Virus record (IMG/VR): IMGVR_UViG_3300048895_000023
Coordinates: 1 to 54,335 of that record
Reading direction: 5' to 3' (one strand)
From: a virus
Taxonomy: Duplodnaviria; Caudoviricetes
Length of the DNA: 54,335 nt
Both the position numbers and the translations under genes were made by a program. Position 1 is the first letter of the stretch; each line of letters starts with the position of its first letter. The notes under the pieces are model-generated. The model saw nothing but the letters and a program-made list of their open reading frames with translations, was not told the origin of the DNA and did not search any database. Below, in pieces: positions 55 to 46,038 of this stretch.

Positions 55-180
55 CGGATTGTGACGGGGGTACCAAGACTATTTCCATGGGTCTTCATCA
101 GCCCTTCTCCTTTCAAGAGTGCGCGTATCGGTCGGGTCCGAAAAGTGCATTAAAAGTCTTGGTACCTCCATCAAAGTCCG
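55..180 (+). ncRNA. candidate structured small RNA with anti-RBS sequence
   Basis: GGGGGTACCAAGACT (66-80) pairs with AGTCTTGGTACCTCC (155-169), extendable with G-U pairs/mismatches to ~55-180; the interior contains TTCTCCTTTCAAGAG (105-119), the reverse complement of the repeated CTCTTGAAAGGAGAA start signal. Confidence 0.5.
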
Positions 181-24149: not shown

Positions 24150-24428
24150 TTGAGTGAAACGTCTATCGACACTGCGAACAAAGGGATTCTTCTCTCTGGG
24201 CGTACCTACGATATTCTGAAAGATGTCAACCTGGTGGGTCTACCTGCTCTAGCGACGCTCTACGCGACTCTAGCTCTTATTTGGCACTGGCCATTCTCAG
24301 AGCAGATCGTTGGCACCATCGCAGCTATCGTTCTTTTCATGGGAGTAATCCTTAAGATCAGTAGCGTGCAGTACAAGGCAAAGGTTGCAGCACTGGACAC
24401 GGAGTTTATGACGGCGGATTCGCAGTAA
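24150..24428 (+). CDS. holin (Dp-1-like)
   Basis: YDILK...LPALATLY...IW...EQIVGTIAA...ISSVQY; two TM segments. Confidence 0.82.
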   Translation: MSETSIDTANKGILLSGRTYDILKDVNLVGLPALATLYATLALIWHWPFSEQIVGTIAAIVLFMGVILKISSVQYKAKVAALDTEFMTADSQ

Positions 24429-24469
24429 TTTCACGCCTTATAATGAACCCCTCTTGAAAGGAGACCCAC

Positions 24470-24748
24470 GTGCGCAAACTGCCCGTAACATTCACCAAAG
24501 CCATCGAAACCGAACAGCTTCGACTTCTCTCTGAAGCCGAGTCGCTAGGAACCGATTCCCCCGATTACAAAACCAAAATTGAATTCATCAAAAGCCTTAA
24601 TGAAACGAAGTCCAAAAAGGACAACAATGCCATTATCGCTGCGCTGATCAGTGCTGGCGCATCCGTCGCAGGAATCCTCCTCGTACTCAACTATGAGAGA
24701 GCCGGAGCCGTCGTCTCGAAGTCGTTTGGACTTGTTAAGAAAGCTTAA
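24470..24748 (+). CDS. cassette 1 small membrane protein
   Basis: GTG after CTCTTGAAAGGAG; C-terminal TM segment. Confidence 0.75.
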   Translation: MRKLPVTFTKAIETEQLRLLSEAESLGTDSPDYKTKIEFIKSLNETKSKKDNNAIIAALISAGASVAGILLVLNYERAGAVVSKSFGLVKKA

Positions 24749-24775
24749 CCACCAAATCAACTAAAAGAACATCCG

Positions 24776-24820
24776 AAAGGAAGGACTAGACCTAAAAATT
24801 CTAGTCCTTCCTTTTTCTTT
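24776..24820 (+). terminator. intrinsic terminator-like hairpin
   Basis: perfect 15-bp stem AAAGGAAGGACTAGA / TCTAGTCCTTCCTTT, loop CCTAAAAAT, T-run. Confidence 0.8.
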
Positions 24821-24845
24821 TCGCGAGAAAAACAACCCCTATAAT

Positions 24846-24960
24846 GAACCAATAAACCGCTTCCCTGCAAAGGGTGTCTCCCGAAAGCGTAACCAATCAG
24901 ACTATTATTCGGACTTTGGTTCTTTATATCCTCACGGTAATTCCACAAAGGTTATAAATT
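24846..24960 (+). ncRNA. candidate small RNA occupying cassette 2
   Basis: promoter motif with no RBS or ORF behind it; GAACCAA (24846) pairs with TTGGTTC (24916); CCCT-GCAA-AGGG GNRA hairpin; CCGAA/TTCGG. Confidence 0.5.
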
Positions 24961-25010
24961 TTGCGCGTGTAATACATGCCTTATAATGAACCCCTATGAA
25001 AGGATTTATT

Positions 25011-25151
25011 ATGAAAGAACTCACAGGCCCACAGATTGCCATTCTGTTTGGTCTAGCATGCACTGCCTCCGCAGTAGCAACTGGACTAGTACTCAGAACC
25101 ATATCTCGAAAGCTCAACCCAGAGCCAGTATCATATCTCTCCGCCATGTAG
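25011..25151 (+). CDS. cassette 3, 46-aa membrane peptide
   Basis: ATG after ATGAAAGGA; MKELTGPQIAILFGLACTASAVATGLVLRTISRKLNPEPVSYLSAM; not in the ORF track. Confidence 0.7.
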   Translation: MKELTGPQIAILFGLACTASAVATGLVLRTISRKLNPEPVSYLSAM

Positions 25152-25241
25152 GCACAGAAAGCTATCAGCCCCTAACACGGGCTATAGTTTTTCGCAGGAA
25201 AAACAGGTCATATAATGAACCCCTCTTGAAAGGAGACTCAC

Positions 25242-25508
25242 ATGACCACCAACTCAAACCCAGATTCCACTAAAGTCATTGCAGTAGTAACTGTAGTAAT
25301 TCTAGGAACGGCCACCATCGTGCTTAGGCACCGCAACTCGCAACTCAAAGCAGAGAACAAGAAATTGTCCTTTACCAAAGTACATTACACGCGGACCATC
25401 GAGCGCCTCATCAACCATATTCCCAGAGATCACTACGACGCTGTTGTTGCCGACTTGAACGAAGATCTGAAGTTTGCGATCATCACACGAGATCTAAACA
25501 AGAACTAA
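25242..25508 (+). CDS. cassette 4 small membrane-anchored protein
   Basis: RBS CTCTTGAAAGGAG; N-terminal TM segment. Confidence 0.75.
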   Translation: MTTNSNPDSTKVIAVVTVVILGTATIVLRHRNSQLKAENKKLSFTKVHYTRTIERLINHIPRDHYDAVVADLNEDLKFAIITRDLNKN

Positions 25509-25591
25509 CAAAGCTATCAGCCCCTCACACGGGCTATAGTTTTTCGCAGGAAAAACAAGGGCTATAGTGAACCCCTATGAAAGGAAAACTA

Positions 25592-25825
25592 ATGACCAAG
25601 TTTCAAACTTTTTGTAAGAAGCACCAGACCCCTATCCTCATCGCAAGTTGCGCTGTCGCTACGGTCGCTGTTGTAATTGCCGTCAATCAGGTTAAGACCC
25701 GAATGATTGCAAACTACACTCCCGACCCCCTAGCCGAAGCCGCAGCTTTCGAAGACTTTACAAAGGCCATGGCTCTCGCAAAGAAGTATGACGCAGAAGA
25801 TGCAGCCAAACTTCTAGGAAAGTAA
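25592..25825 (+). CDS. cassette 5 small membrane-anchored protein
   Basis: ATG 25592 after ATGAAAGGA; one TM segment. Confidence 0.75.
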   Translation: MTKFQTFCKKHQTPILIASCAVATVAVVIAVNQVKTRMIANYTPDPLAEAAAFEDFTKAMALAKKYDAEDAAKLLGK

Positions 25826-25916
25826 AAAGCTATCAGCCCCTCGCACGGGCTATAGTTTTGCCTAGATCTCGCGTAATATTCATAGCATATAATGAACCCC
25901 TATGAAAGGAACAACC

Positions 25917-26003
25917 ATGTTTAACACCATCAAGTCCATCATCGCCGAGATCAAGCAAGACCTTGCTAACGCTCGCCCGATGTGGAACCACGTTGCTAAC
26001 TAA
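25917..26003 (+). CDS. cassette 6, 28-aa peptide
   Basis: own promoter motif and RBS; MFNTIKSIIAEIKQDLANARPMWNHVAN. Confidence 0.65.
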   Translation: MFNTIKSIIAEIKQDLANARPMWNHVAN

Positions 26004-26124
26004 GTTACATCTTCACAGTTAACAAAACCAACAGCCCCTAACACGGGCTTTAGGTTTTTCTCGTCTTATATTTTTGCGCGTGAAAAACAAGGGCTATAGT
26101 GACACCCCTATGAAAGGACACACC

Positions 26125-26379
26125 ATGTCAACTGAAGAAATCCAATTCACCCCCATCGCGATTAAGATCGCTGCCCCTCGAACCGCGCATATTCTGGCGA
26201 TGCTAGAGCCCCGCTTTGCGGAAATGGACTACGATACCCTCCTCCACGGAAACTACGTCGTATTCGATTACCCCGAAAACGGACACTACACCCTCGTCAC
26301 CGAAGAGCGTTTCCAGGCAAAGTTCACCAATCCTTGGGAACCTTGGTTCTTCCAGCCCTTGGTAGTAGACACTATCTAA
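26125..26379 (+). CDS. cassette 7 hypothetical protein
   Basis: ATG 26125 after ATGAAAGGA; 84 aa soluble. Confidence 0.75.
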   Translation: MSTEEIQFTPIAIKIAAPRTAHILAMLEPRFAEMDYDTLLHGNYVVFDYPENGHYTLVTEERFQAKFTNPWEPWFFQPLVVDTI

Positions 26380-26469
26380 GAAGTCAGAAAGCTATCAGCC
26401 CCTCACACGGGCTATAGTTTTTCGCGTAATATTCATAGGGTATAATGAACCCCTATGAAAGGAAAACCC

Positions 26470-26643
26470 ATGACCATCAAGCCCGTCATCGCCAAATCCG
26501 TCTTCACCGTTCAGGCCCACGCCATTGCCGCTGGAACCTTCGCTTACGCGATTGGTTACGTTGCAAAGACCGCGGTCCAGGACAGCGTCAAGACGATCAA
26601 GGAAATGAAAGCCGAAGGCTACTTCACCCCAAATAAGTTCTAA
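26470..26643 (+). CDS. cassette 8 small protein
   Basis: ATG 26470 after ATGAAAGGA; 57 aa with hydrophobic middle. Confidence 0.7.
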   Translation: MTIKPVIAKSVFTVQAHAIAAGTFAYAIGYVAKTAVQDSVKTIKEMKAEGYFTPNKF

Positions 26644-26737
26644 ACCAAAAACCAAAAGCCCCTAACAAGGCCTATGGTTTTATTTTTTGCGCGAGAAAAA
26701 CAAGCGCTATAGTGAAACCTCTTGAAAGGAGATCCTC

Positions 26738-26917
26738 ATGAACGTCACGTTTACCACCAACAACTCCAGCCTCCAGCTCTCCAAAGTTGGTTCCGTAGCT
26801 CTTGTCACCTATGCCACCGTCGGCATGGTTGTCATCAGTCTCGGAATCGCCAACCTCGGAGAACGAGCTGTCGTTGCGTACAAGCGCCGACTCAACCGTA
26901 AGATCAACGAAAAGTAA
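26738..26917 (+). CDS. cassette 9, 59-aa membrane peptide
   Basis: RBS CTCTTGAAAGGAG; MNVTFTT...VALVTYATVGMVVISLGIANL...YKRRLNRKINEK; not in the ORF track. Confidence 0.72.
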   Translation: MNVTFTTNNSSLQLSKVGSVALVTYATVGMVVISLGIANLGERAVVAYKRRLNRKINEK

Positions 26918-27017
26918 ATCACAAAGCCAAAAGCCCCACAAGGCCTATGGTTTTCTTTTTCTCGCGAGATTTTCAGACCCTATAATGAACCCCTATTCTC
27001 TTGAAAGGAGAACCCAA

Positions 27018-27218
27018 ATGAACACCACCGAACCAACCGTCGTGATCCACAACTACCCCACCATCAAGGAGCAGCTTGCACAGGGCGGTATCTCCCTCGC
27101 CATCGGCGTCGGCGTTACCGTTGCCTATGTAGGCGTCTTCGCGCTGGTCGACTTTGTGGGCAAGAAGGTCAAGGCTCGCAAGGCCGCTCAGACCGAAACC
27201 ACCCCTTCAACTGACTAA
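27018..27218 (+). CDS. cassette 10 small membrane protein
   Basis: ATG 27018 after CTCTTGAAAGGAG; one TM segment then basic tail. Confidence 0.75.
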   Translation: MNTTEPTVVIHNYPTIKEQLAQGGISLAIGVGVTVAYVGVFALVDFVGKKVKARKAAQTETTPSTD

Positions 27219-27281
27219 CAATCAAAGCTAAACTACAACTAACACTTGTGGTTTATGCTTTCATTTTTCTAAGGAAGAATC

Positions 27282-27518
27282 ATGACAGTAGAACATGTTA
27301 AGGCGTGGAAGGTCACAGAAGAGAACACTTTGATCCTCAAGAACATATCTGGAGAGGCTGAGGCTACTTTTAAGTCTTGTCCTGGCTGGGTTCTCATTGA
27401 GGACTGGAGTGAGCGCCCGCGCTTTCTTTTGATGCCGGAATCCGTATTCCACACGTACTATCCGAACCTCGAATTCACTGAATTATCAATAGATTCGCGA
27501 GAAATACAAGGGGTATAA
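27282..27518 (+). CDS. hypothetical protein
   Basis: ORF track; RBS TAAGGA; faint resemblance to 26125..26379 and 43888..44211. Confidence 0.65.
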   Translation: MTVEHVKAWKVTEENTLILKNISGEAEATFKSCPGWVLIEDWSERPRFLLMPESVFHTYYPNLEFTELSIDSREIQGV

Positions 27519-27543
27519 TGAACCCCCTATGAAAGGAAAAACC

Positions 27544-27693
27544 ATGAAGAAGCTCAAGCAGAAGTTTGAGGAAGACCCCATCTTCGCTACCACCCTTATC
27601 ATCACCGGAGCAGTCGTTGCTACCGGCCTGATAAAGGCAATTGCGAAGGGAATCGAATCCTCTGCTTACGCCTACCGCGCCTCCAAGCTCTAA
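27544..27693 (+). CDS. cassette 11, 49-aa membrane peptide
   Basis: MKKLKQKFEEDPIFATTLIITGAVVATGLIKAIAKGIESSAYAYRASKL; promoter motif and RBS; not in the ORF track. Confidence 0.72.
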   Translation: MKKLKQKFEEDPIFATTLIITGAVVATGLIKAIAKGIESSAYAYRASKL

Positions 27694-27764
27694 ACCCATA
27701 AGGAACAAAACTCGAACTACAACTAATACTTGTGGTTTGAGTTTCTTTTTTTGAAAGGCATTAC

Positions 27765-28088
27765 ATGCTAGCAATTCATTTTGGAATTCGTGAAAGCGAA
27801 GTAGCCGTATTCAAGGGTCAGATCAGCCGTATGGTCTCAGAACCCCTCGAGATTCGTACATGGGCAGAGGCCTGGGATGCTGGGAATGATCCAGAGTTCA
27901 TCTTGGAGCCTACCACCCACGTAGTACTCACCACCATGACTCCAATGGTTCTGCTCAACTTCATTGCTGGAAACTTCAGTAATTTCCTTGTCCCTCACGC
28001 AGCAGAGAACCTTGACGGTGTTCTGATGTTTGTTACGGACTCGGAAGAGTGGACCAGTGAGTACCTGGAACTCCGATATCCAGGATAA
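27765..28088 (+). CDS. hypothetical protein
   Basis: ORF track; RBS TGAAAGG. Confidence 0.65.
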   Translation: MLAIHFGIRESEVAVFKGQISRMVSEPLEIRTWAEAWDAGNDPEFILEPTTHVVLTTMTPMVLLNFIAGNFSNFLVPHAAENLDGVLMFVTDSEEWTSEYLELRYPG

Positions 28089-28146
28089 ACTCGCGTAAAA
28101 ATCAGGTGTTATAATGACCCAGTAAACCTCTTGAAAGGAAGTTATT

Positions 28147-28323
28147 ATGCCTGAAGTCAACGTCGTTAAGAACACCCCCTCGAACGACTTTAGCCCTAAG
28201 CTGAAGTTCGTCGTTTCCGTGGGAGCCCAAGTAATCATTGGACTCCTCGGAATCGCCGTCACAGCTGCAGTTACAGTCGCCCTCGCTAAGGGTACCGAAA
28301 CCGCCATTGAACTCGCTGAGTAA
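28147..28323 (+). CDS. cassette 12, 58-aa membrane peptide
   Basis: MPEVNVV...FVVSVGAQVIIGLLGIAVTAAVTVALAKG...; promoter motif and RBS; not in the ORF track. Confidence 0.72.
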   Translation: MPEVNVVKNTPSNDFSPKLKFVVSVGAQVIIGLLGIAVTAAVTVALAKGTETAIELAE

Positions 28324-28405
28324 TCACTCACAGATCCAACTGAACAAAACCTAAACTACAACTAACACTTGTGGTTTAGGTTTACATTTTTGAAAAGGAG
28401 ATAAA

Positions 28406-28627
28406 ATGCATGAGCCACTCTTTATAGAGCCTTGGTGGTTAATGGTATTAGTAGCCATTGCCCTATGGGTTCTATGGATTGCTCTGGTGCTCAACTTCCG
28501 AGCAAAGATTGACAATTACTTCGCTATGCGGAGGCACAACCGGCGTATGCGCAATTACATGAAGCGCAGCGCACAACTGGATATTGCAAGAAAGTTGGTC
28601 ACCAGTGACACTCGCACTCGCCGCTAG
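28406..28627 (+). CDS. small membrane protein
   Basis: RBS AAAGGAG; TM segment and basic tail. Confidence 0.7.
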   Translation: MHEPLFIEPWWLMVLVAIALWVLWIALVLNFRAKIDNYFAMRRHNRRMRNYMKRSAQLDIARKLVTSDTRTRR

Positions 28628-29363
28628 GAACGCCCTTGGCGTTGTCAAGCAAAAGTCCCCGGTTATTCTAACGGGGCTTGCGATCGGAGGTGTTGTGACT
28701 ACTACCGTATTGGCAGTACAAGCAACGCCTCGAGCAATCATCGCCATCGATGAAGACCAGGAGGACGGCACTACTCTCACTAAGTGGGAGGTCGTCAAGA
28801 AGGTTTGGCCCTACTATATTCCAGTCGTCATTACGGGCGGTCTCACGATCGCTTGTATGATTGGTGCCCAGAGTGTAAATACTCGGCGCCAGGCAGCTCT
28901 CGTTGGTGCTTTCACCATTACCGAAGGTGCCTTCCAGGAATATAAGGAACAGGTGGTCGAGGTACTTGGCAAGACCAAGGAGTCCTCAGAAGTTCGAGAG
29001 AAGATCATCCAGAAGAAGATTGAAGAGAATCCTCCTAGTAAGGATATCATCATCGGATCTGGTAACGTGTTGTGTTTTGACACGTATACTGGTCGATATT
29101 TCGAAAGTTCCATGGAGAAGATCCGTGCTGCCCAGAACGACTTCAATGAGATGCTCATCAATGGTGAGATGTACATGTCAGCGAACGAATTCTACCACCT
29201 GATCGATCTCGATGACGTTGTCGTCGGTGAGCAGGTTGGGTTCTCTCCTGAGAACACTATGAAGATCGAATTCACCTCTCGTCTGACCCCGGACGGGAGG
29301 CCTTGTCTTGCCATAAGCTTCCGAGCTCTTCCCCGGCAAGACTACAGATCGATGTTCCAATAG
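28605..29363 (+). CDS. DUF6353-like membrane-associated protein
   Basis: SPVILTGLAIGGVVTTTVLAVQATP...RRQAALVGAF...NEFY; paralogous to 35808..36698; family name from memory; start uncertain. Confidence 0.65.
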   Translation: MTLALAARNALGVVKQKSPVILTGLAIGGVVTTTVLAVQATPRAIIAIDEDQEDGTTLTKWEVVKKVWPYYIPVVITGGLTIACMIGAQSVNTRRQAALVGAFTITEGAFQEYKEQVVEVLGKTKESSEVREKIIQKKIEENPPSKDIIIGSGNVLCFDTYTGRYFESSMEKIRAAQNDFNEMLINGEMYMSANEFYHLIDLDDVVVGEQVGFSPENTMKIEFTSRLTPDGRPCLAISFRALPRQDYRSMFQ

Positions 29364-29498
29364 CCCTTGCCTATGCCCCGTCTGTACGGAGATCGGCGAA
29401 GACGAAATCTGCCACTGTCCGGAATGTGAGGGAGCCGGATTGTGACTAAAACCCTAAAGACCCCACTTGAATTAATTCAACCAACAAAGGAGAAAAAG

Positions 29499-29636
29499 AT
29501 GGACAAGCTCAAGGCATACGCCGCAGCGGCAGGACAGAACAAGCAGCTGGTGGCGGTTACCGCTATCGCTTCTGCAGGACTGGCTCTGGTAATTGAGAAC
29601 GGCATTCGTATTGCCATTCTCAAGAAGAAGGCCTAG
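29499..29636 (+). CDS. small hydrophobic protein
   Basis: RBS AAAGGAG, 45 aa. Confidence 0.6.
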   Translation: MDKLKAYAAAAGQNKQLVAVTAIASAGLALVIENGIRIAILKKKA

Positions 29637-29699
29637 GTCGCATATTTGAGGGCGCTGTCTATACGATGGCGCCCTCAAAAGCTCTCTTGAAAGGAGACT

Positions 29700-29975
29700 T
29701 TGATGGCCGAATCATCAGTAAAACGTACCACTGCTGAACTACACGCCCTTATTGCCCTGGCGACCGAACTCGGTTTCCTGGATGATCTGGCTGTGTGGCA
29801 AGCAGAACTCGCCGAAAACGAGCGTGTTGAGGGCGAGAAGACTTACCACTTTGCGTGGCAAGGACGCAACAAATTCATTGACGCAACTAGCGAAGATGAA
29901 GCTCGAGTTATGTTCGCTGAGCGCTTCGGCTTCGAAGCCTCTTTCGTATCGGCAACCGTCAAGGTTCTCGATTAA
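29700..29975 (+). CDS. hypothetical protein
   Basis: RBS CTCTTGAAAGGAG preceded by a GC hairpin (TTTGAGGGCGC...GCGCCCTCAAA). Confidence 0.7.
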   Translation: MMAESSVKRTTAELHALIALATELGFLDDLAVWQAELAENERVEGEKTYHFAWQGRNKFIDATSEDEARVMFAERFGFEASFVSATVKVLD

Positions 29976-29989
29976 ATATAAGGAGTAAG

Positions 29990-31690
29990 ATGAAGAAAGT
30001 CACTTCGCTACTTGCCGTAGCGTTGCTGTCTGCTAGTGCCGTAATCGGCATTGGTACGTCAGCGTCGGCATCTGTCGTAGACTGTATCCCCTCTGAGGGA
30101 GTCGCAGCATACGACGAAACCATCACGGAGGCCTTTGACGAGATCATCGTCGATTCGGCAGCCATTGACCTCTGGTACTCTTGGACAGGTGGCCCGAGTG
30201 ATGCTCATGCCTTCCCAGGCTTGGACTGGCAGGTTGATCAGGGAAACCACAACGGATTTGACCAGACTCCTGGTCTCCTCCAGCGTGACAAGGGCAACAG
30301 CGGAGAGAGCGACTGGTTCTATCACCAGGTAGTTGCTGCTGTGACCCACCCGGTGCACCACGATGCAGTTATCGTACACCACGATGCAGTTCCTCCCGTT
30401 ACGTGCGGTGACGACGAGCCGGTAGTTCAGGTTGGTCTATATTGCTATGACAAGCTCGATGCCTCACTTCCGGCATCGTGGGAGAACTCTGGAGTGCAGA
30501 CTCTCGTAGCTGTCAAGGCTGGGACTGAGGACTGGACTCTCGCTGAGAAGCTAGCACTCTGCTTTATTCCAGAAGAGTCCTGCGACCCTGTGTCGTCAGG
30601 TTCTCAGACCGACTGGGTGAGTACGGACGAGGAATTTACGTTCCCTGACCATATTCTCTACCCGACTGACAACATTGGCTGGCCGCCGATCTACAATGCT
30701 GTTCACACGGACCTTTCTCCGGCTTTGTCGGAAGAGGGTTGTGAGCCTGTTGTAGAACCTGAGTACTGCGTTGCTGATGGCGACTGGTACACTGAAGGCG
30801 ACGACTCGGCTCCGGCTGAGACTGCTGATGGTCTGGTATTCACCGGTGGTTCTGGTAATGCTGTTGGCTACCGTCATGCGGTAACTGGCAACCTCCAGGG
30901 TCTCGACACGATCAACTACACGGCAAGCGGAGATCTTGATCTCTTCTATATCCGTATCGTTCTGGATTCAACGGAAGACGGTGGATGGGCATATGACTCG
31001 CTCACCGTTATTTCTGAGGGTCCGGTAAACGGATCGTCTATCGCGTCGTCGAACAAGCGTGGGTTTGTTACTCACACTCTTGACGAGTGGGCTGCACTTC
31101 TGCCCAACAGCGACATCACTTCCATCGGATTCCACCTGGACTCTGGCGCTAGTGCTGACAAGTCAGTAACTCTCGTATTGTTCGAGGGAAACTGCCTTGA
31201 GGGAGAATTCGGATATCCTGAGACCGTGGGCTTCCCTGCTCAGTTCTCGGCTGACCCGGATATTCCTACCTGTGACACTGATGGTGTAGCGCCGCTTCTT
31301 GGCGAGTACCCCAACGTGACAATCACATCTGACCGTCCTTTCGACGGTCCTGGAGAGTACACGATTACGGTTACGCCAAATGGAGATTTCATCCTGACGG
31401 ATATTCCTGAGTCGTGGACTGTTAACCCTGATGGTTCGGCAAGTCGTGTCATTGATATCCTGCCCGCAACTGGAGTTACTCAGAGTGAAGACCCTGAGGC
31501 CGCTTGCTACGCAGCACCTCCTATCAGTGACCCGCCCACGACTAACCCTCCTGTGGTGACTCCTACTGGTACGATCCCAGCTCTTGGAGCGCATGACCCG
31601 ATTGGTGGCATTATTGCATCGATCGTAGCCGGTCTTGCTGGTATCGGACTCCTGCTCTTCGGTCGTTTCCGTAAGGGTGCAGTAATCTAG
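29990..31690 (+). CDS. secreted, cell-surface anchored protein
   Basis: Sec signal peptide (MKKVTSLLAVALL...ASA), acidic Cys-containing body, Pro/Thr linker, IPALG, TM segment, RFRK tail. Confidence 0.8.
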   Translation: MKKVTSLLAVALLSASAVIGIGTSASASVVDCIPSEGVAAYDETITEAFDEIIVDSAAIDLWYSWTGGPSDAHAFPGLDWQVDQGNHNGFDQTPGLLQRDKGNSGESDWFYHQVVAAVTHPVHHDAVIVHHDAVPPVTCGDDEPVVQVGLYCYDKLDASLPASWENSGVQTLVAVKAGTEDWTLAEKLALCFIPEESCDPVSSGSQTDWVSTDEEFTFPDHILYPTDNIGWPPIYNAVHTDLSPALSEEGCEPVVEPEYCVADGDWYTEGDDSAPAETADGLVFTGGSGNAVGYRHAVTGNLQGLDTINYTASGDLDLFYIRIVLDSTEDGGWAYDSLTVISEGPVNGSSIASSNKRGFVTHTLDEWAALLPNSDITSIGFHLDSGASADKSVTLVLFEGNCLEGEFGYPETVGFPAQFSADPDIPTCDTDGVAPLLGEYPNVTITSDRPFDGPGEYTITVTPNGDFILTDIPESWTVNPDGSASRVIDILPATGVTQSEDPEAACYAAPPISDPPTTNPPVVTPTGTIPALGAHDPIGGIIASIVAGLAGIGLLLFGRFRKGAVI

Positions 31691-31697
31691 TTATATC

Positions 31698-31797
31698 TGA
31701 AGGTCGAATTGCCACCGTAGACATACTTCCCCCAAGTGGTGTCTGGTAACGAGTCGATAGGTGTTTAGTGGCAAGAATGCCCTACGACTGACCTTCC
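31698..31797 (+). ncRNA. candidate pseudoknotted RNA motif, copy 1
   Basis: intergenic; GAAGGT/ACCTTC, ACC(GT)AGAC/GTCTGGT, AGTCG/CGACT stems and TTGCCA/TGGCAA pseudoknot; second copy at 33286. Confidence 0.65.
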
Positions 31798-31820
31798 TAT
31801 AATCTCTTGAAAGGAGAATC

Positions 31821-32084
31821 GTGGCTATCAAAGCACACTTTACCATCTTCTCTGGTCCTCCTCGATCAGGTAAGACCAGATATGCCAACGAGTTGAAGTC
31901 TGATCCCAATCAGAAAGTCTTCATTCAATTCGAAGGCCATAACGAGGAACATGTCATACGACAGATATTTGCAGTTCTGGCTGATGGTTGTGATGTTATT
32001 TATGAAACCACGCATCCAGTTACTCGGATCTCACAACAGCTTTTGGATCGAGTAGACACCATTGAGGTGTTTAGAGTTAACTAA
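31821..32084 (+). CDS. small P-loop-containing protein
   Basis: IFSGPPRSGKT Walker A; only 87 aa. Confidence 0.65.
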   Translation: MAIKAHFTIFSGPPRSGKTRYANELKSDPNQKVFIQFEGHNEEHVIRQIFAVLADGCDVIYETTHPVTRISQQLLDRVDTIEVFRVN

Positions 32085-32107
32085 TTCTCTTTGAAAGGAG
32101 AAAACTG

Positions 32108-32230
32108 ATGGGCTACAACACGAAATCAAAGTACGGATTCTGGGCATTTGTCTTGGATCTTTTCCTCATCGTTATCACGGGAGGCATCTGGCTTATCTGG
32201 ATGATCTTCCGTGCACTTAGGAGTAACTAA
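32108..32230 (+). CDS. 40-aa membrane peptide
   Basis: RBS GAAAGGAG; MGYNTKSKYGFWAFVLDLFLIVITGGIWLIWMIFRALRSN. Confidence 0.7.
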   Translation: MGYNTKSKYGFWAFVLDLFLIVITGGIWLIWMIFRALRSN

Positions 32231-32541
32231 TGGCTGAGTTGCCAGAAGACACCACAGAATATGATCTGAATCCAGATCGCTTCCTCATCCACGCCAAGCA
32301 GTTCGTCGTCGGCGCCAATGCTGTAGAGACCGCCGAGACCGGAGAGGAAGAGTTGACAGTTGAGCAGCTCTATATTGTCTGGTTCGCCAAGGTTCTTGGT
32401 AACTGGAAGGCCCTCATCTCGACGACTGTCCCTGGTGATGGTCTATATTTCGAGGTGACACACAGCGGTGAGAAGAACGAAACCTACGTGGATATTTACA
32501 GGAAGTCCGCGAATCACTTGTTCTCCCACAACAACCACTAA
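32230..32541 (+). CDS. DUF6275-like protein
   Basis: YIVWFAKVLGNWKALIST...YFEVT...ETYVDIYRK; family name from memory. Confidence 0.65.
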   Translation: MAELPEDTTEYDLNPDRFLIHAKQFVVGANAVETAETGEEELTVEQLYIVWFAKVLGNWKALISTTVPGDGLYFEVTHSGEKNETYVDIYRKSANHLFSHNNH

Positions 32542-32555
32542 CAAGAAAGAAAGAT

Positions 32556-33143
32556 ATGCTACGCAAAGAGATTACGTACACCAACTTCAATGGTAAGGAG
32601 GTGACGAAGCCATTCTTCTTCAACATCACGAAGGCTGAGATCGGTCTCCGTGAGATGGAGTCAGACGGCACCTGGTCTGAGACTCTTAAGACGATCCAGG
32701 AGTCAAACAAGGGCTCCGTCGTTCTCCCAGAGTTCCGTAAGATCATTCAGTGGGTCTATGGAGAGAAGAGCGAAGATGGTGAATCATTCCTCAAGAGTGA
32801 TGAAATTTGGGCCAAGTTCAACAACTCAGAGCCCTGGTCCAAGCTTATCATGGAGCTCCTACAGAACCCAGGCTACGCAGCGCAGTTCATTAAGGAGTGC
32901 ATGCCAGCAGATATGCAGGGTGCTCTTTCGGAGAAGTTGGCTGAACCCGGATTCCGTCCAGGAGCAGACACCTCTCGACCCACACCACCAGCTAATCCGC
33001 CAGCGGCCGCACCTCAACCTGAAGTTGTCCAACAGCCGGCGTATCTCGCTCCGGCACCTGTTGAAGTAGCTCCACAGCAACCAGCTACCGAAGCACCAGT
33101 AGTACAGCAGTCGACTCCTCGCGAGCCTGATCTGTCGCAGTAA
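32556..33143 (+). CDS. conserved phage hypothetical protein
   Basis: MLRKEITYTNFNG...YGEKSEDG.SF.KS; Pro/Gln-rich tail. Confidence 0.7.
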   Translation: MLRKEITYTNFNGKEVTKPFFFNITKAEIGLREMESDGTWSETLKTIQESNKGSVVLPEFRKIIQWVYGEKSEDGESFLKSDEIWAKFNNSEPWSKLIMELLQNPGYAAQFIKECMPADMQGALSEKLAEPGFRPGADTSRPTPPANPPAAAPQPEVVQQPAYLAPAPVEVAPQQPATEAPVVQQSTPREPDLSQ

Positions 33144-33280
33144 ATTCCCGAAAGGGAGCCCGGTCAGGGGTCGAACTCTGGCCGGGCACATAGATTTATG
33201 GGGAATATTCCGTCACTACCACCTCCTTTCAAGATAAAGTGGCTGGAATGTTTTAAATAACAGCAAATCAGTGCCCCGAT
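33144..33280 (+). ncRNA. candidate structured RNA with anti-RBS loop
   Basis: TCCC-GAAA-GGGA and GC hairpins, then AATATTCC.GTCACT-[ACCACCTCCTTTCAAGATAA]-AGTGGC.GGAATGTT. Confidence 0.55.
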
Positions 33281-33285
33281 TTTTA

Positions 33286-33465
33286 TGAAGGTCGAATGAC
33301 TACCGTAGACGCCACTTTTTCATAGGGGTTGCGTTTGGTAATGAGTTATATGCTTACTGTGTGTTCGTTGAAGTCCGGTGACTCGGGCTGTACCCAGGTC
33401 TATAAAAACGTGGAGCGATCTTAAGAAGCACTGATAGTCATATTTATGAGCTATAACTAACCTTC
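33286..33465 (+). ncRNA. candidate pseudoknotted RNA motif, copy 2
   Basis: same conserved blocks as 31698-31797 with compensatory changes and a longer insert. Confidence 0.65.
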
Positions 33466-33751
33466 CCGTACCAGGGGATTTCCCAGTGCCTTCGATGACT
33501 TGACGAAAGTCAGTTAGCCGGAGGGGAATCTGAAATGACCGCCAATACCTAAAGGCGCCCTGGTACATCATATTTTTAGGGCATCGGATAAGCCTAATCC
33601 TGAGCGGAATACGCAGGGAAGAAATAAACCGACGACGAGCCGGAGTTAGACCTTGGTAGCAGTCCCCGGATAAAACGGGCTGTGAAACGTAGAGTATCGG
33701 AATCCTGGGCACGATCTAAAACTACCCAACCTTATTCTTTACAAGGAGAGA

Positions 33752-33976
33752 ATGATGATGTTCAAGCGTTATATTAAGGTTAGCCTTGAAAAGAAGGCTG
33801 ATGAGTATGGCATTATAATGCCGCATGATCGACCCAACCCGTATTATGAGAAGATCGTCGAACGGCAGACAAAGCGCTTGTTCGTTGGAAGTCTTATTCT
33901 CATTGGAACAACAGTAGTCCTGGTCACGGTCGGACAGATTACTGTGAACGCTCTAAACCCGGCCTCGCGAAAATAA
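33752..33976 (+). CDS. small membrane protein
   Basis: RBS AAGGAG; C-terminal TM segment. Confidence 0.65.
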   Translation: MMMFKRYIKVSLEKKADEYGIIMPHDRPNPYYEKIVERQTKRLFVGSLILIGTTVVLVTVGQITVNALNPASRK

Positions 33977-44917: not shown

Positions 44918-45297
44918 TGAGTCGCGACGACGGCTACCTGGTTCGCCAGAGGCCTCGTAAGACTTACGCGATGGCTGGCAAGTGGGTAGTACAACACTAC
45001 TTCACAAGTGCTCAGTGGCCGGATATTAACGATCCTAGTCTTGAGGAGTACGGCAATCTGGAGTCAGCACTTGGGGCGTATAAAGACGCTGCGAATGAGA
45101 CTGAGTATGGTTTCCGTATCGTACAGGACGAGCCACTTATTTCTGGTGGCTCCACCGTCTACGATGCTGAGCACACCGAGGAAACGCTTAGGCGGGTCTA
45201 TGGTGCTCTGCATACCGAAGGCATCTACGGTCAAAAGGCTGTGGATGTAGTCAATGCAATTCACAACAACGGCGTACTATTTAGGGATCGATCATGA
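44917..45297 (+). CDS. hypothetical protein
   Basis: coupled to neighbours. Confidence 0.7.
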   Translation: MSRDDGYLVRQRPRKTYAMAGKWVVQHYFTSAQWPDINDPSLEEYGNLESALGAYKDAANETEYGFRIVQDEPLISGGSTVYDAEHTEETLRRVYGALHTEGIYGQKAVDVVNAIHNNGVLFRDRS

Positions 45298-45713
45298 TTA
45301 CGGAGTGGTGGCAGTGGATATTCGTGATTGCTGGAGGACTCCTGCTTGCGGGAATCTCCTACATCCTATTCAGTATCATTATTGGGCTGATTGCTATGTG
45401 GAGCGGTAAGATCTACTGGCACACTTATGCCTGGGCTCACAACCGTAAAGCCCGTAAGCTGAATGAGAAGGCTCGACTTGAGCGACTCAAGCGTACGGAT
45501 TGGGAAGGCATTCGTCTTCCTATGGGCAAGTCTGGCGAATTGACATATTCTGTCGAAGAGCAGATGTCCTGGGTAAGTGTTGACTCCCATCGTCTTGAGA
45601 AGGTCCTTAAGGATCGTGCTGATGACCTGGGAGTTGAGTTCCAATTTGCTACCAACAACGCGACGAGAGAAATCTCTGTTCGTTGGGCACCACGTCTGCG
45701 CGTGGATAAATAG
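45294..45713 (+). CDS. membrane-anchored hypothetical protein
   Basis: N-terminal TM segment. Confidence 0.7.
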   Translation: MITEWWQWIFVIAGGLLLAGISYILFSIIIGLIAMWSGKIYWHTYAWAHNRKARKLNEKARLERLKRTDWEGIRLPMGKSGELTYSVEEQMSWVSVDSHRLEKVLKDRADDLGVEFQFATNNATREISVRWAPRLRVDK

Positions 45714-46015
45714 GTCTTAGGCGCAGAGCGGGTAATGGGGTGACTTCATAGAGGAGGAGATCATCAAACGGGTTGAAGCCGGATTTGCTAACTAGTTTAG
45801 CCAAAAACCTACCCCATTATCGTGACAATTACTAGCATGCACCGGTTGAAAAAGCCCGGATAGTCGGTCACTATGAGTGATCCAAAAGCCCCTGCTGATT
45901 AATTAGGTCATTCATAGGCTGTGTGACGAGAATGGACGGACTGATTACCCGTCTATACGAGGCTCGTCAGGGGGCCGCTCTAGGAAATCTTACTGACCTA
46001 GAGCGGCCCTTCCAC
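45714..46015 (+). ncRNA. candidate structured RNA region
   Basis: ~300 nt without an ORF of 60 aa or more; stems GGTAATGGGGT/ACCCCATTATC, GTGAC/GTCAC, CTATGAGTGA/TCATTCATAG, TGACGAG/CTCGTCA, GGCCGCTCTAGG/CCTAGAGCGGCC. Confidence 0.45.
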
Positions 46016-46038
46016 CAAACTCTCTTGAAAGGGGAAGA

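Follow-up and report, generated by a model that had tools for sequence, protein, structure and literature searches.

Several kinds of compact folded RNA are known from positions between genes. Transfer RNA (tRNA)-like elements and T-arm minihelices can direct the processing of neighboring RNAs by RNase P or RNase Z, exonuclease-resistant (xrRNA-like) or 5'-stabilizing folded RNAs sit at message boundaries, and a pseudoknotted aptamer closed by a first stem (P1) is a general riboswitch architecture. To our knowledge, few new classes of self-cleaving ribozyme have been described in recent years, and natural RNA folds that are both new and well supported by covariation are seldom found. Here we describe an element that is present twice in a 54,335-nucleotide (nt) stretch of Caudoviricetes DNA (IMG/VR record IMGVR_UViG_3300048895_000023, positions 1 to 54,335; the window, by which we mean this whole stretch). 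Comparison with its relatives indicates that the element represents a previously uncatalogued family of compact RNAs in phages of Actinobacteria, spread over two unrelated actinophage groups. Small folded RNAs at phage gene boundaries are a familiar kind; the fold and the family are new.

A first-pass annotation made from the letters of the window had reported sequence blocks shared between positions 31698-31797 and 33286-33465, with stems that change in compensatory fashion. Both observations held. The two copies, A and B, align without gaps in four blocks, and the pseudoknot strands read TTGCCA/TGGCAA in copy A and ATGACTA/TAGTCAT in copy B, while those of the third stem read AGTCG/CGACT and AGTTATA/TATAACT, respectively. 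On the window gene map both copies, which had also been noted as intergenic, prove to be so on the + strand, and the minus-strand open reading frames (ORFs) that overlap them (31691-31909 and 33320-33712) have no Pfam match and one PHROG match only, at an E value of 0.029. The window has exactly two matches to a 24-position pattern that links the first two blocks, one starting at 31699 and the other at 33287, both on the + strand, and 100 dinucleotide-preserving shuffles of the window gave none.

Each copy folds into the closing stem P1, a hairpin with a two-base GU bulge (P2), and a further stem (P3), with a pseudoknot formed between the strand joining P1 to P2 (J1/2) and the P3 loop (Table 1). 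The pseudoknot is a perfect 7-base complement in each copy, with letters that differ between the two. When the loops were shuffled, the P3 interior contained a 7-bp complement, at any position, in 73 of 20,000 shuffles for copy A and in 260 of 20,000 for copy B. Copy A begins 8 nt past the stop codon of a gene of 566 aa (29990-31690), and 24 nt separate its end from the GTG start of the following ORF (31821-32084, 87 aa). Copy B lies within a noncoding stretch of about 600 nt (33144-33751) after a Phage_TAC_17 (Pfam) gene (32556-33143).

Table 1. Positions of the two copies of the element and of their parts in the window; bit scores are those of models R1 and R2 (see text).
Feature	Position	Strand	Score or remark
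Copy A, whole element (98 nt)	31699-31796	+	108.9 bits (R1), 104.9 bits (R2)
Copy A, P1	31699-31705 with 31790-31796	+	Covaries in the family (4/7 pairs)
Copy A, J1/2	31706-31715	+	Conserved GAAU, then pseudoknot 5' strand (31709-31715)
Copy A, pseudoknot	31709-31715 with 31768-31774	+	3' strand within the P3 loop
Copy A, P2 hairpin	31714-31747	+	Conserved GU bulge (31717-31718); optional in the family
Copy A, J2/3 (AACG)	31748-31751	+	Part of the conserved GGUAAYGAG block
Copy A, P3	31752-31789	+	Loop holds pseudoknot 3' strand (31768-31774)
Copy B, whole element (179 nt)	33287-33465	+	Long insertion in P3; 225.2 bits (R1), 89.7 bits (R2)
Copy B, P1	33287-33292 with 33460-33465	+	
Copy B, pseudoknot	33296-33302 with 33435-33441	+	
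Copy B, P2 hairpin	33302-33339	+	GU bulge (33305-33306)
Copy B, P3	33344-33458	+	7 bp at base; interior of about 100 nt with pseudoknot 3' strand (33435-33441)

When the whole window was scanned with Rfam 15 at gathering scores, the only match was a pistol ribozyme (RF02679) at 45690-45745 (+), with 43.4 bits, and nothing was found over either copy. At an E value of up to 10 with permissive filters, the 2.2 kb from 31600 to 33800 gave four weak matches, none of them over either copy; the hammerhead, twister, twister-sister, hatchet, and hepatitis delta virus (HDV)-like ribozymes had no match at this level, and neither did the tRNA model RF00005 around the copies. Nothing was found at an E value of up to 1 over the element in three of its relatives (L087, L140, and the Streptomyces phage Gilson; see below). 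ARAGORN called no tRNA in the window and none over the element in 13 Streptomyces phage loci. The earlier statement that the motif could not be assigned to hammerhead, twister, pistol, or a known riboswitch is consistent with these scans, which do detect a pistol ribozyme elsewhere in the window, and the novelty of the element stands. No description of the element was found in the literature searched, from which most subscription journals and supplements fell outside, and the same literature held no study of non-tRNA noncoding RNAs in this phage group.

Relatives were sought with sequence patterns and with three models, R1 built from the two window copies, R2 from three sequences, and R3 from four soil-phage sequences only. 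None of the models found the element in the best 80 of 191 DNA-polymerase relatives (55 to 62% identity) or in 31 loci with relatives of the TAC-like gene, and it was also absent from five whole related virus records. Exact-pattern scans of IMG/VR with the two-copy consensus gave nothing; a pattern with variable J1/2 length gave three loci there and a scan of genome contigs gave six, all of which were judged to be chance. Among the 11 loci from a metagenome scan, one, on a contig from soil, was real (L087 634-735, 80 bits) and the other 10 were chance. More distant members were missed by these early scans because the patterns demanded CCGTAG, which neither L140 nor the Streptomyces phages keep. 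With the base after CCGTA freed, at least 119 stretches matched, and a locus on the viral contig L140 (8433-8560), which scored 42.7 bits with R2, was among the 80 loci listed; further family members may exist beyond the matches listed. Look-alikes in L054, L072/L073, and L040 were read by eye as protein-coding and lacked the rest of the motif, L196 (12.9 bits, E value of 1.9), L144, and L160 were rejected as noise, and a search of the other 196 loci with R3 added no further member.

The L140 element proved to be the sole bridge to cultured phages. Neither copy A nor copy B alone gave anything real in blastn searches against them, and the L140 element matched intergenic DNA of Streptomyces phages. 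The Gilson element as query then matched 28 Streptomyces phage records, 26 of them over at least 80% of its length, with Gilson, Annadreamy, Comrade, and Faust among the carriers. These forms lack P2 and retain P1 and P3 as well as the GAAU strand, the pseudoknot, and the GUAAYGAG joiner. When whole Streptomyces phage genomes (125 to 131 kb) were searched with R3, each of the five had one strong match (27.5 to 30.7 bits, E values of 8.5E-7 to 8.3E-6), and Annadreamy had one weak extra match (15.9 bits). A read index revealed five further soil runs, from five studies, that contain part of the element, and the short contigs of four were compared. The family can be defined by P1, GGU(C/A)GAAU, a pseudoknot of 5 to 7 bp to the P3 loop, GUAAYGAG, and P3, with P2 optional; both window copies, L087, L140, and 12 distinct Streptomyces phage sequences conform to this definition. 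Of the 28 Streptomyces phage records, 13 were used, and Limpid, being identical to Annadreamy, was left out of the alignment.

The fold was then examined for covariation across this family. For the two copies and one close relative, covariation in the nested stems alone was not significant, the observed value being reached in 112 of 500 shuffles, and significance was obtained only once more distant relatives were added. In L140, P1, P2, and the pseudoknot have other letters with the pairing kept. A four-sequence alignment that included L140 had 96.7% of its cells paired and 8 of 23 pairs changing on both sides, values reached in 0 to 1 of 500 shuffles, in an alignment that, being fitted by the model, leans towards structure. 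A MAFFT alignment of 16 rows (A8) was made from the 12 distinct Streptomyces phage elements, L140, copy A, L087, and copy B, and the 23 pairs of P1, the pseudoknot, P3, and its inner hairpin P3c were counted (359 cells). P2 was left out of the count since only four rows have it and MAFFT misplaced one gap. Standard pairs filled 93.6% of the 359 cells, 11 of the 23 pairs changed on both sides (38 cells), and none of 500 shuffles reached any of the five measures. When the partners were slid by 1 to 3 columns, at most 48.6% of the cells paired and at most four pairs covaried. In P1, four of seven pairs covaried. The pseudoknot was paired in 100% of its cells, with three of five pairs covarying, and its changes came from independent lineages (copy B, L140, and the phage Forrest). 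In addition, G-U pairs were found solely when the + strand was read, which points to an RNA of that strand. Conserved bases that remain unpaired, about a dozen in all, are concentrated at the junction, which is reminiscent of a catalytic or binding core.

An independent prediction with RNAalifold on 13 rows recovered P1 and a continuous P3. RNAalifold cannot draw pseudoknots, and it instead placed the 5' strand of the pseudoknot in a pairing with GUAAU, a conserved segment. This alternative pairing was disrupted in both L140 and copy B and had no compensating change. Four triplets, two GGU and two ACC (columns 5-7, 17-19, 52-54, and 224-226 of a further alignment, A6), do not vary among the forms with P2 and could exchange pairing partners. 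A two-state fold is possible, and it has no covariation support. With respect to the individual stems, an extended outer P1 of copy A (UUAUA/UAUAA) was dropped as it is not kept in L087 or copy B, and the seventh pseudoknot pair of copy A was dropped as it is not kept in L087 or in soil runs X2 and X3. A reading of P1 as a Shine-Dalgarno/anti-Shine-Dalgarno mimic (GAAGGU; GGAGGU in L087) was also abandoned because P1 covaries freely (GGUGGU, UAUAGGU, GCAGGU), as was a conserved mini-ORF, the frames of which differ between copies A and B, with stops in all frames.

Taken with the lack of an Rfam match, the homologues with covariation found in L087, L140, and the Streptomyces phages and the strand-specific G-U pairs support the first-pass proposal that the motif is a functional structured RNA. 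The part of that proposal which likened it to a riboswitch is disfavored, since the genes downstream are unrelated or absent (see below).

The element is a modular, portable unit that occupies different sites in different genomes. Over 117 nt the L087 element and copy A share 83% identity, with every letter the same through the P2 loop, and the proteins encoded by the genes that flank the L087 element are only 35% and 48% identical to those of the window. It lies 3' of the TAC-like gene in L087 and L140 and 3' of the 566-aa gene at copy A. Soil runs X2 and X5 have the window arrangement with a diverged upstream gene, and run X4 is L087-like. In run X3, P1 is joined at its 3' end, with no base between, to a sequence found in L087 some 380 nt further downstream. 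The L087 and X3 conservation and the flank comparisons indicate a discrete module with edges at the ends of P1. L140 is syntenic with the window by tblastx, having the TAC-like gene, about 700 nt without a supported ORF, the element, and a promoter motif at about 8657, and its element occupies the position of copy B. Nine identical bases that include the stop codon, ATCTAGTTA, are found at window positions 31685-31693 and at L087 621-629, behind two non-homologous genes; the stop codon may have come along with a transferred module, or the 8-nt spacing to P1 may matter. L087 also contains two promoter-like boxes, each followed by a hairpin of the TTCTATTAG...CTAATAGAA type, with about 330 nt of noncoding RNA between them (826-872, 1216-1258, and 1279-1299), and the end of its contig resembles by eye the 5' half of a tRNA, a cut gene that ARAGORN cannot call.

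In both phage groups the element usually lies in a noncoding island that also has tRNA or tRNA-like genes. The Annadreamy copy begins 1 nt after an annotated tRNA-Leu (L256 630-701), which ARAGORN does not call. An odd tRNA lies about 95 nt downstream of the element in Belfort, MeganTheeKilla, and Forrest and 55 to 78 nt upstream of it in Sham and Blueeyedbeauty, and Gilson has a T-arm-like hairpin about 50 nt upstream. Among relatives of the window, L009 and L018 have a tRNA 4.7 to 6.6 kb upstream of the polymerase gene. Related phages were seen to carry several neighboring "tRNA-OTHER" genes with odd anticodon loops, in islands rich in non-canonical tRNA-like genes. An ORF starts 17 to 34 nt downstream of the element at copy A and at 8 of the 13 Streptomyces phage loci; the ORFs downstream belong to at least three unrelated families, and no ORF adjoins on that side at copy B, L087, L140, Comrade, Belfort, MeganTheeKilla, or Forrest. 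In the phage Moab (L257), the element occupies 401-490 and a deposited coding sequence (CDS; gene 251, 462-722) starts within it. This start is probably mis-called, because the Annadreamy and Faust homologues start downstream of the element.

CheckV puts the window genome at 95%, a complete or almost complete virus record, and the genome gave weak DNA matches to Arthrobacter and Microbacterium phages. It encodes a terminase, portal, protease, tape measure, and primase-polymerase as well as a single-subunit RNA polymerase of the phrog_4291 kind, and all genes with a family assignment are on the + strand. The promoter motif KCGCR-N7-CA-N5-TATART occurs 14 times on the + strand of the window compared with 0.29 expected, including copies in 24420-28115 and at 33965 and 50366. 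It is absent from 28115 to 33965, the span holding both copies of the element, which suggests that both would lie within one long + strand transcript. The pistol ribozyme overlaps the stop codon of the ORF at 45294-45713, and some 300 nt of noncoding RNA with strong structure (z = -3.94, to 46040) come after it, with the next ribosome-binding site (RBS) at 46023; it thus occupies a position like that of the element, at a gene end of the same genome.

Other small structures were observed around copy B. A 12-bp minihelix with a GUCGAA loop (33158-33187), resembling an acceptor plus T arm, lies 3' of the TAC-like gene and 100 nt upstream of copy B, and its loop has GGUCGAA in common with the element. 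In L102, which is the closest relative, a longer tRNA-like element that includes a GGTTCGAGTCC T arm occupies the same place (1489-1580), and ARAGORN calls neither of the two. A hairpin at 33189-33280 has a loop with CTCCTTTCAAGA, the complement of the extended RBS of the phage (12 RBS copies in the window); this hairpin is kept in L102 (1447-1487), directly 3' of the TAC-like gene, and a second sense copy lies at window positions 107-118. Downstream of copy B, 33467-33750 contains a long-range stem of GUACCAGGG with CCCUGGUAC (about 33468-33567) and further hairpins, for none of which Rfam gave a match; these may be more small RNAs of the same island.

Next, we considered what the element might do. 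The fold, the family, the modularity, and the positions at RNA boundaries in tRNA islands are direct observations, and from them we infer an action at the RNA level. As a tentative first choice, we favor a cis-acting boundary or processing module. The element would be transcribed on the + strand within long phage transcripts and would mark a cut site in the long RNA. Cleavage there would release the neighboring tRNA, small RNA, or message, and one of the products would retain a tightly folded cap. Cutting could be autocatalytic or the work of a tRNA-processing enzyme. The single mechanism that we favor, although as a specific proposal it is rather doubtful, is that of a new, actinophage-specific class of self-cleaving ribozyme. 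Such a ribozyme would cut tRNA-island and polycistronic transcripts at the P1 edge, with the pseudoknot and the conserved bases of GAAU, the GU bulge, and GUAAYGAG together making up its active site. Self-cleavage is preferred because of the compact core of conserved unpaired bases, the location of the element where genes and tRNAs end, and the comparable placement of the pistol ribozyme in this genome.

Several results weigh against this interpretation. The structure tested on A8 was derived from the same sequences, the rows of which are related, and the outer two P3c pairs hold in only 42.9% of cells and are unsupported for one subgroup. The element was missing from 111 related viral loci and the five whole related records, and it must therefore be dispensable. 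No RNA run was among those listed for the element in the read index, so that transcription and cutting are predictions, and the association with the pistol ribozyme is weak, the two being 12 to 14 kb apart. The short distance to an ORF at copy A and the eight Streptomyces phage loci makes a leader role possible. Finally, the whole 5' half, including the P2 loop, is near-identical among the copies of the A type. This could reflect recent transfer or, equally, a sequence-specific partner, for which a simple processing site would have no need.

Such a partner is the core of another reading, nearly as likely as the cis-acting module though still short of probable, in which the element is a stable trans-acting small RNA, freed from tRNA-island transcripts by tRNA-processing enzymes, that would bind a host or phage protein or RNA, possibly as a decoy against host defense or as a helper in translation takeover. 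This small RNA would explain the invariant loop bases of the A-type 5' half, kept across phages with 35 to 48% protein identity, better than a cis-acting module does. Also in keeping with it are the tRNA and tRNA-like neighbors in both groups of phages, the absence of an ORF close downstream of copy B, L087, and L140, and the gene-like single copy per Streptomyces phage genome. However, copy A has no promoter of its own and is wedged between a stop codon and a start codon; the proposed partner is hypothetical, and the window has no conspicuous gene for an RNA-binding protein. We consider it improbable that the element is a ligand-sensing, riboswitch-like leader or another 5' untranslated region element controlling the next gene. 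Apart from the closely following ORFs, this role could draw on the conserved junction bases, which could form a pocket, and on the RNAalifold alternative, which would allow a two-state switch. The genes downstream being unrelated or absent argues against a riboswitch, as does the alternative pairing being broken without compensation while the pseudoknot is compensated, and no terminator and no RBS-masking helix or other sequestering platform was seen to be conserved in the family.

A 3'-end signal of the upstream transcript, acting as a terminator or pause for the phage RNA polymerase or as a block to 3' exonucleases, is to our mind an equally remote prospect. A-type copies do begin exactly 8 nt past the stop codon behind two unrelated genes, copy B and the L140 element are at an operon tail ahead of the next promoter, and the phage does encode a single-subunit polymerase. 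The Streptomyces phage carriers, however, are a different phage group, and termination at copy A would silence the next gene, since this follows at once without its own promoter; simple hairpins suffice as exonuclease blocks, yet the unpaired bases of the element are the best conserved. The least credible explanation is that no RNA is involved and that the copies are a DNA repeat, such as a recombination site or the end of a mobile element, or resemble each other by chance. Varied genomic sites and conservation that ends sharply at the edges would be expected of a repeat, but no transposase or integrase gene adjoins the element, and the compensating changes in four helices, the pseudoknot included, together with G-U pairs allowed in the + reading only, bring it close to exclusion. 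The recurrence of the 24-position pattern, never matched in the shuffled windows, argues against chance.

The small pseudoknotted element is carried by cultured Streptomyces phages (Gilson, Comrade, Annadreamy, Faust, and others) and is thus directly testable. If it is self-cleaving, it would be a new ribozyme class; otherwise it would represent a novel type of small RNA from tRNA islands, or of boundary signal, in actinophages, a phage group in which non-tRNA noncoding RNAs appear to be little studied. The family also corrects annotation, at least one deposited CDS start, that of Moab gene 251, crossing the element.

Compared with the systems described above, the element shares with xrRNA-like RNAs a junction and pseudoknot at cistron boundaries, and such a fold could protect the neighboring RNA; it differs from them in that J1/2 pairs with the P3 loop, and there is no sequence or model match. 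Like riboswitch aptamers, it combines a closing stem with an H-type pseudoknot and a conserved joiner and often closely precedes an ORF, but it is set apart by downstream genes that are unrelated or absent, by the lack of an expression platform, and by the absence of an Rfam riboswitch match. The tRNA-like elements and T-arm minihelices, as seen in the window, L102, and Gilson, have the tRNA-island location in common with it. Like an acceptor stem, P1 closes the element with 6 to 7 bp, and in one case it abuts a tRNA 3' end; the GGUCGAA of the element recurs in the loop region of the window minihelix. The element nevertheless has no cloverleaf, is negative with ARAGORN and the Rfam tRNA model, and has a T-loop-like stretch that runs into a pseudoknot strand rather than a closing stem. 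The pistol, hammerhead, twister-sister, and hatchet ribozymes resemble it in being compact junctions with a pseudoknot and clustered conserved unpaired bases. They differ in the sequences carried by the junction strands, and none has an Rfam match to it at an E value of up to 10; examples of the element are from actinophages only, and its self-cleavage is put forward here as a hypothesis. Like intergenic ribozymes of phages, the element is about 90 to 180 nt long, lies between genes on the phage coding strand, and occurs in more than one copy in the window genome, and, like the pistol ribozyme of the window, it is found right at the end of a gene.

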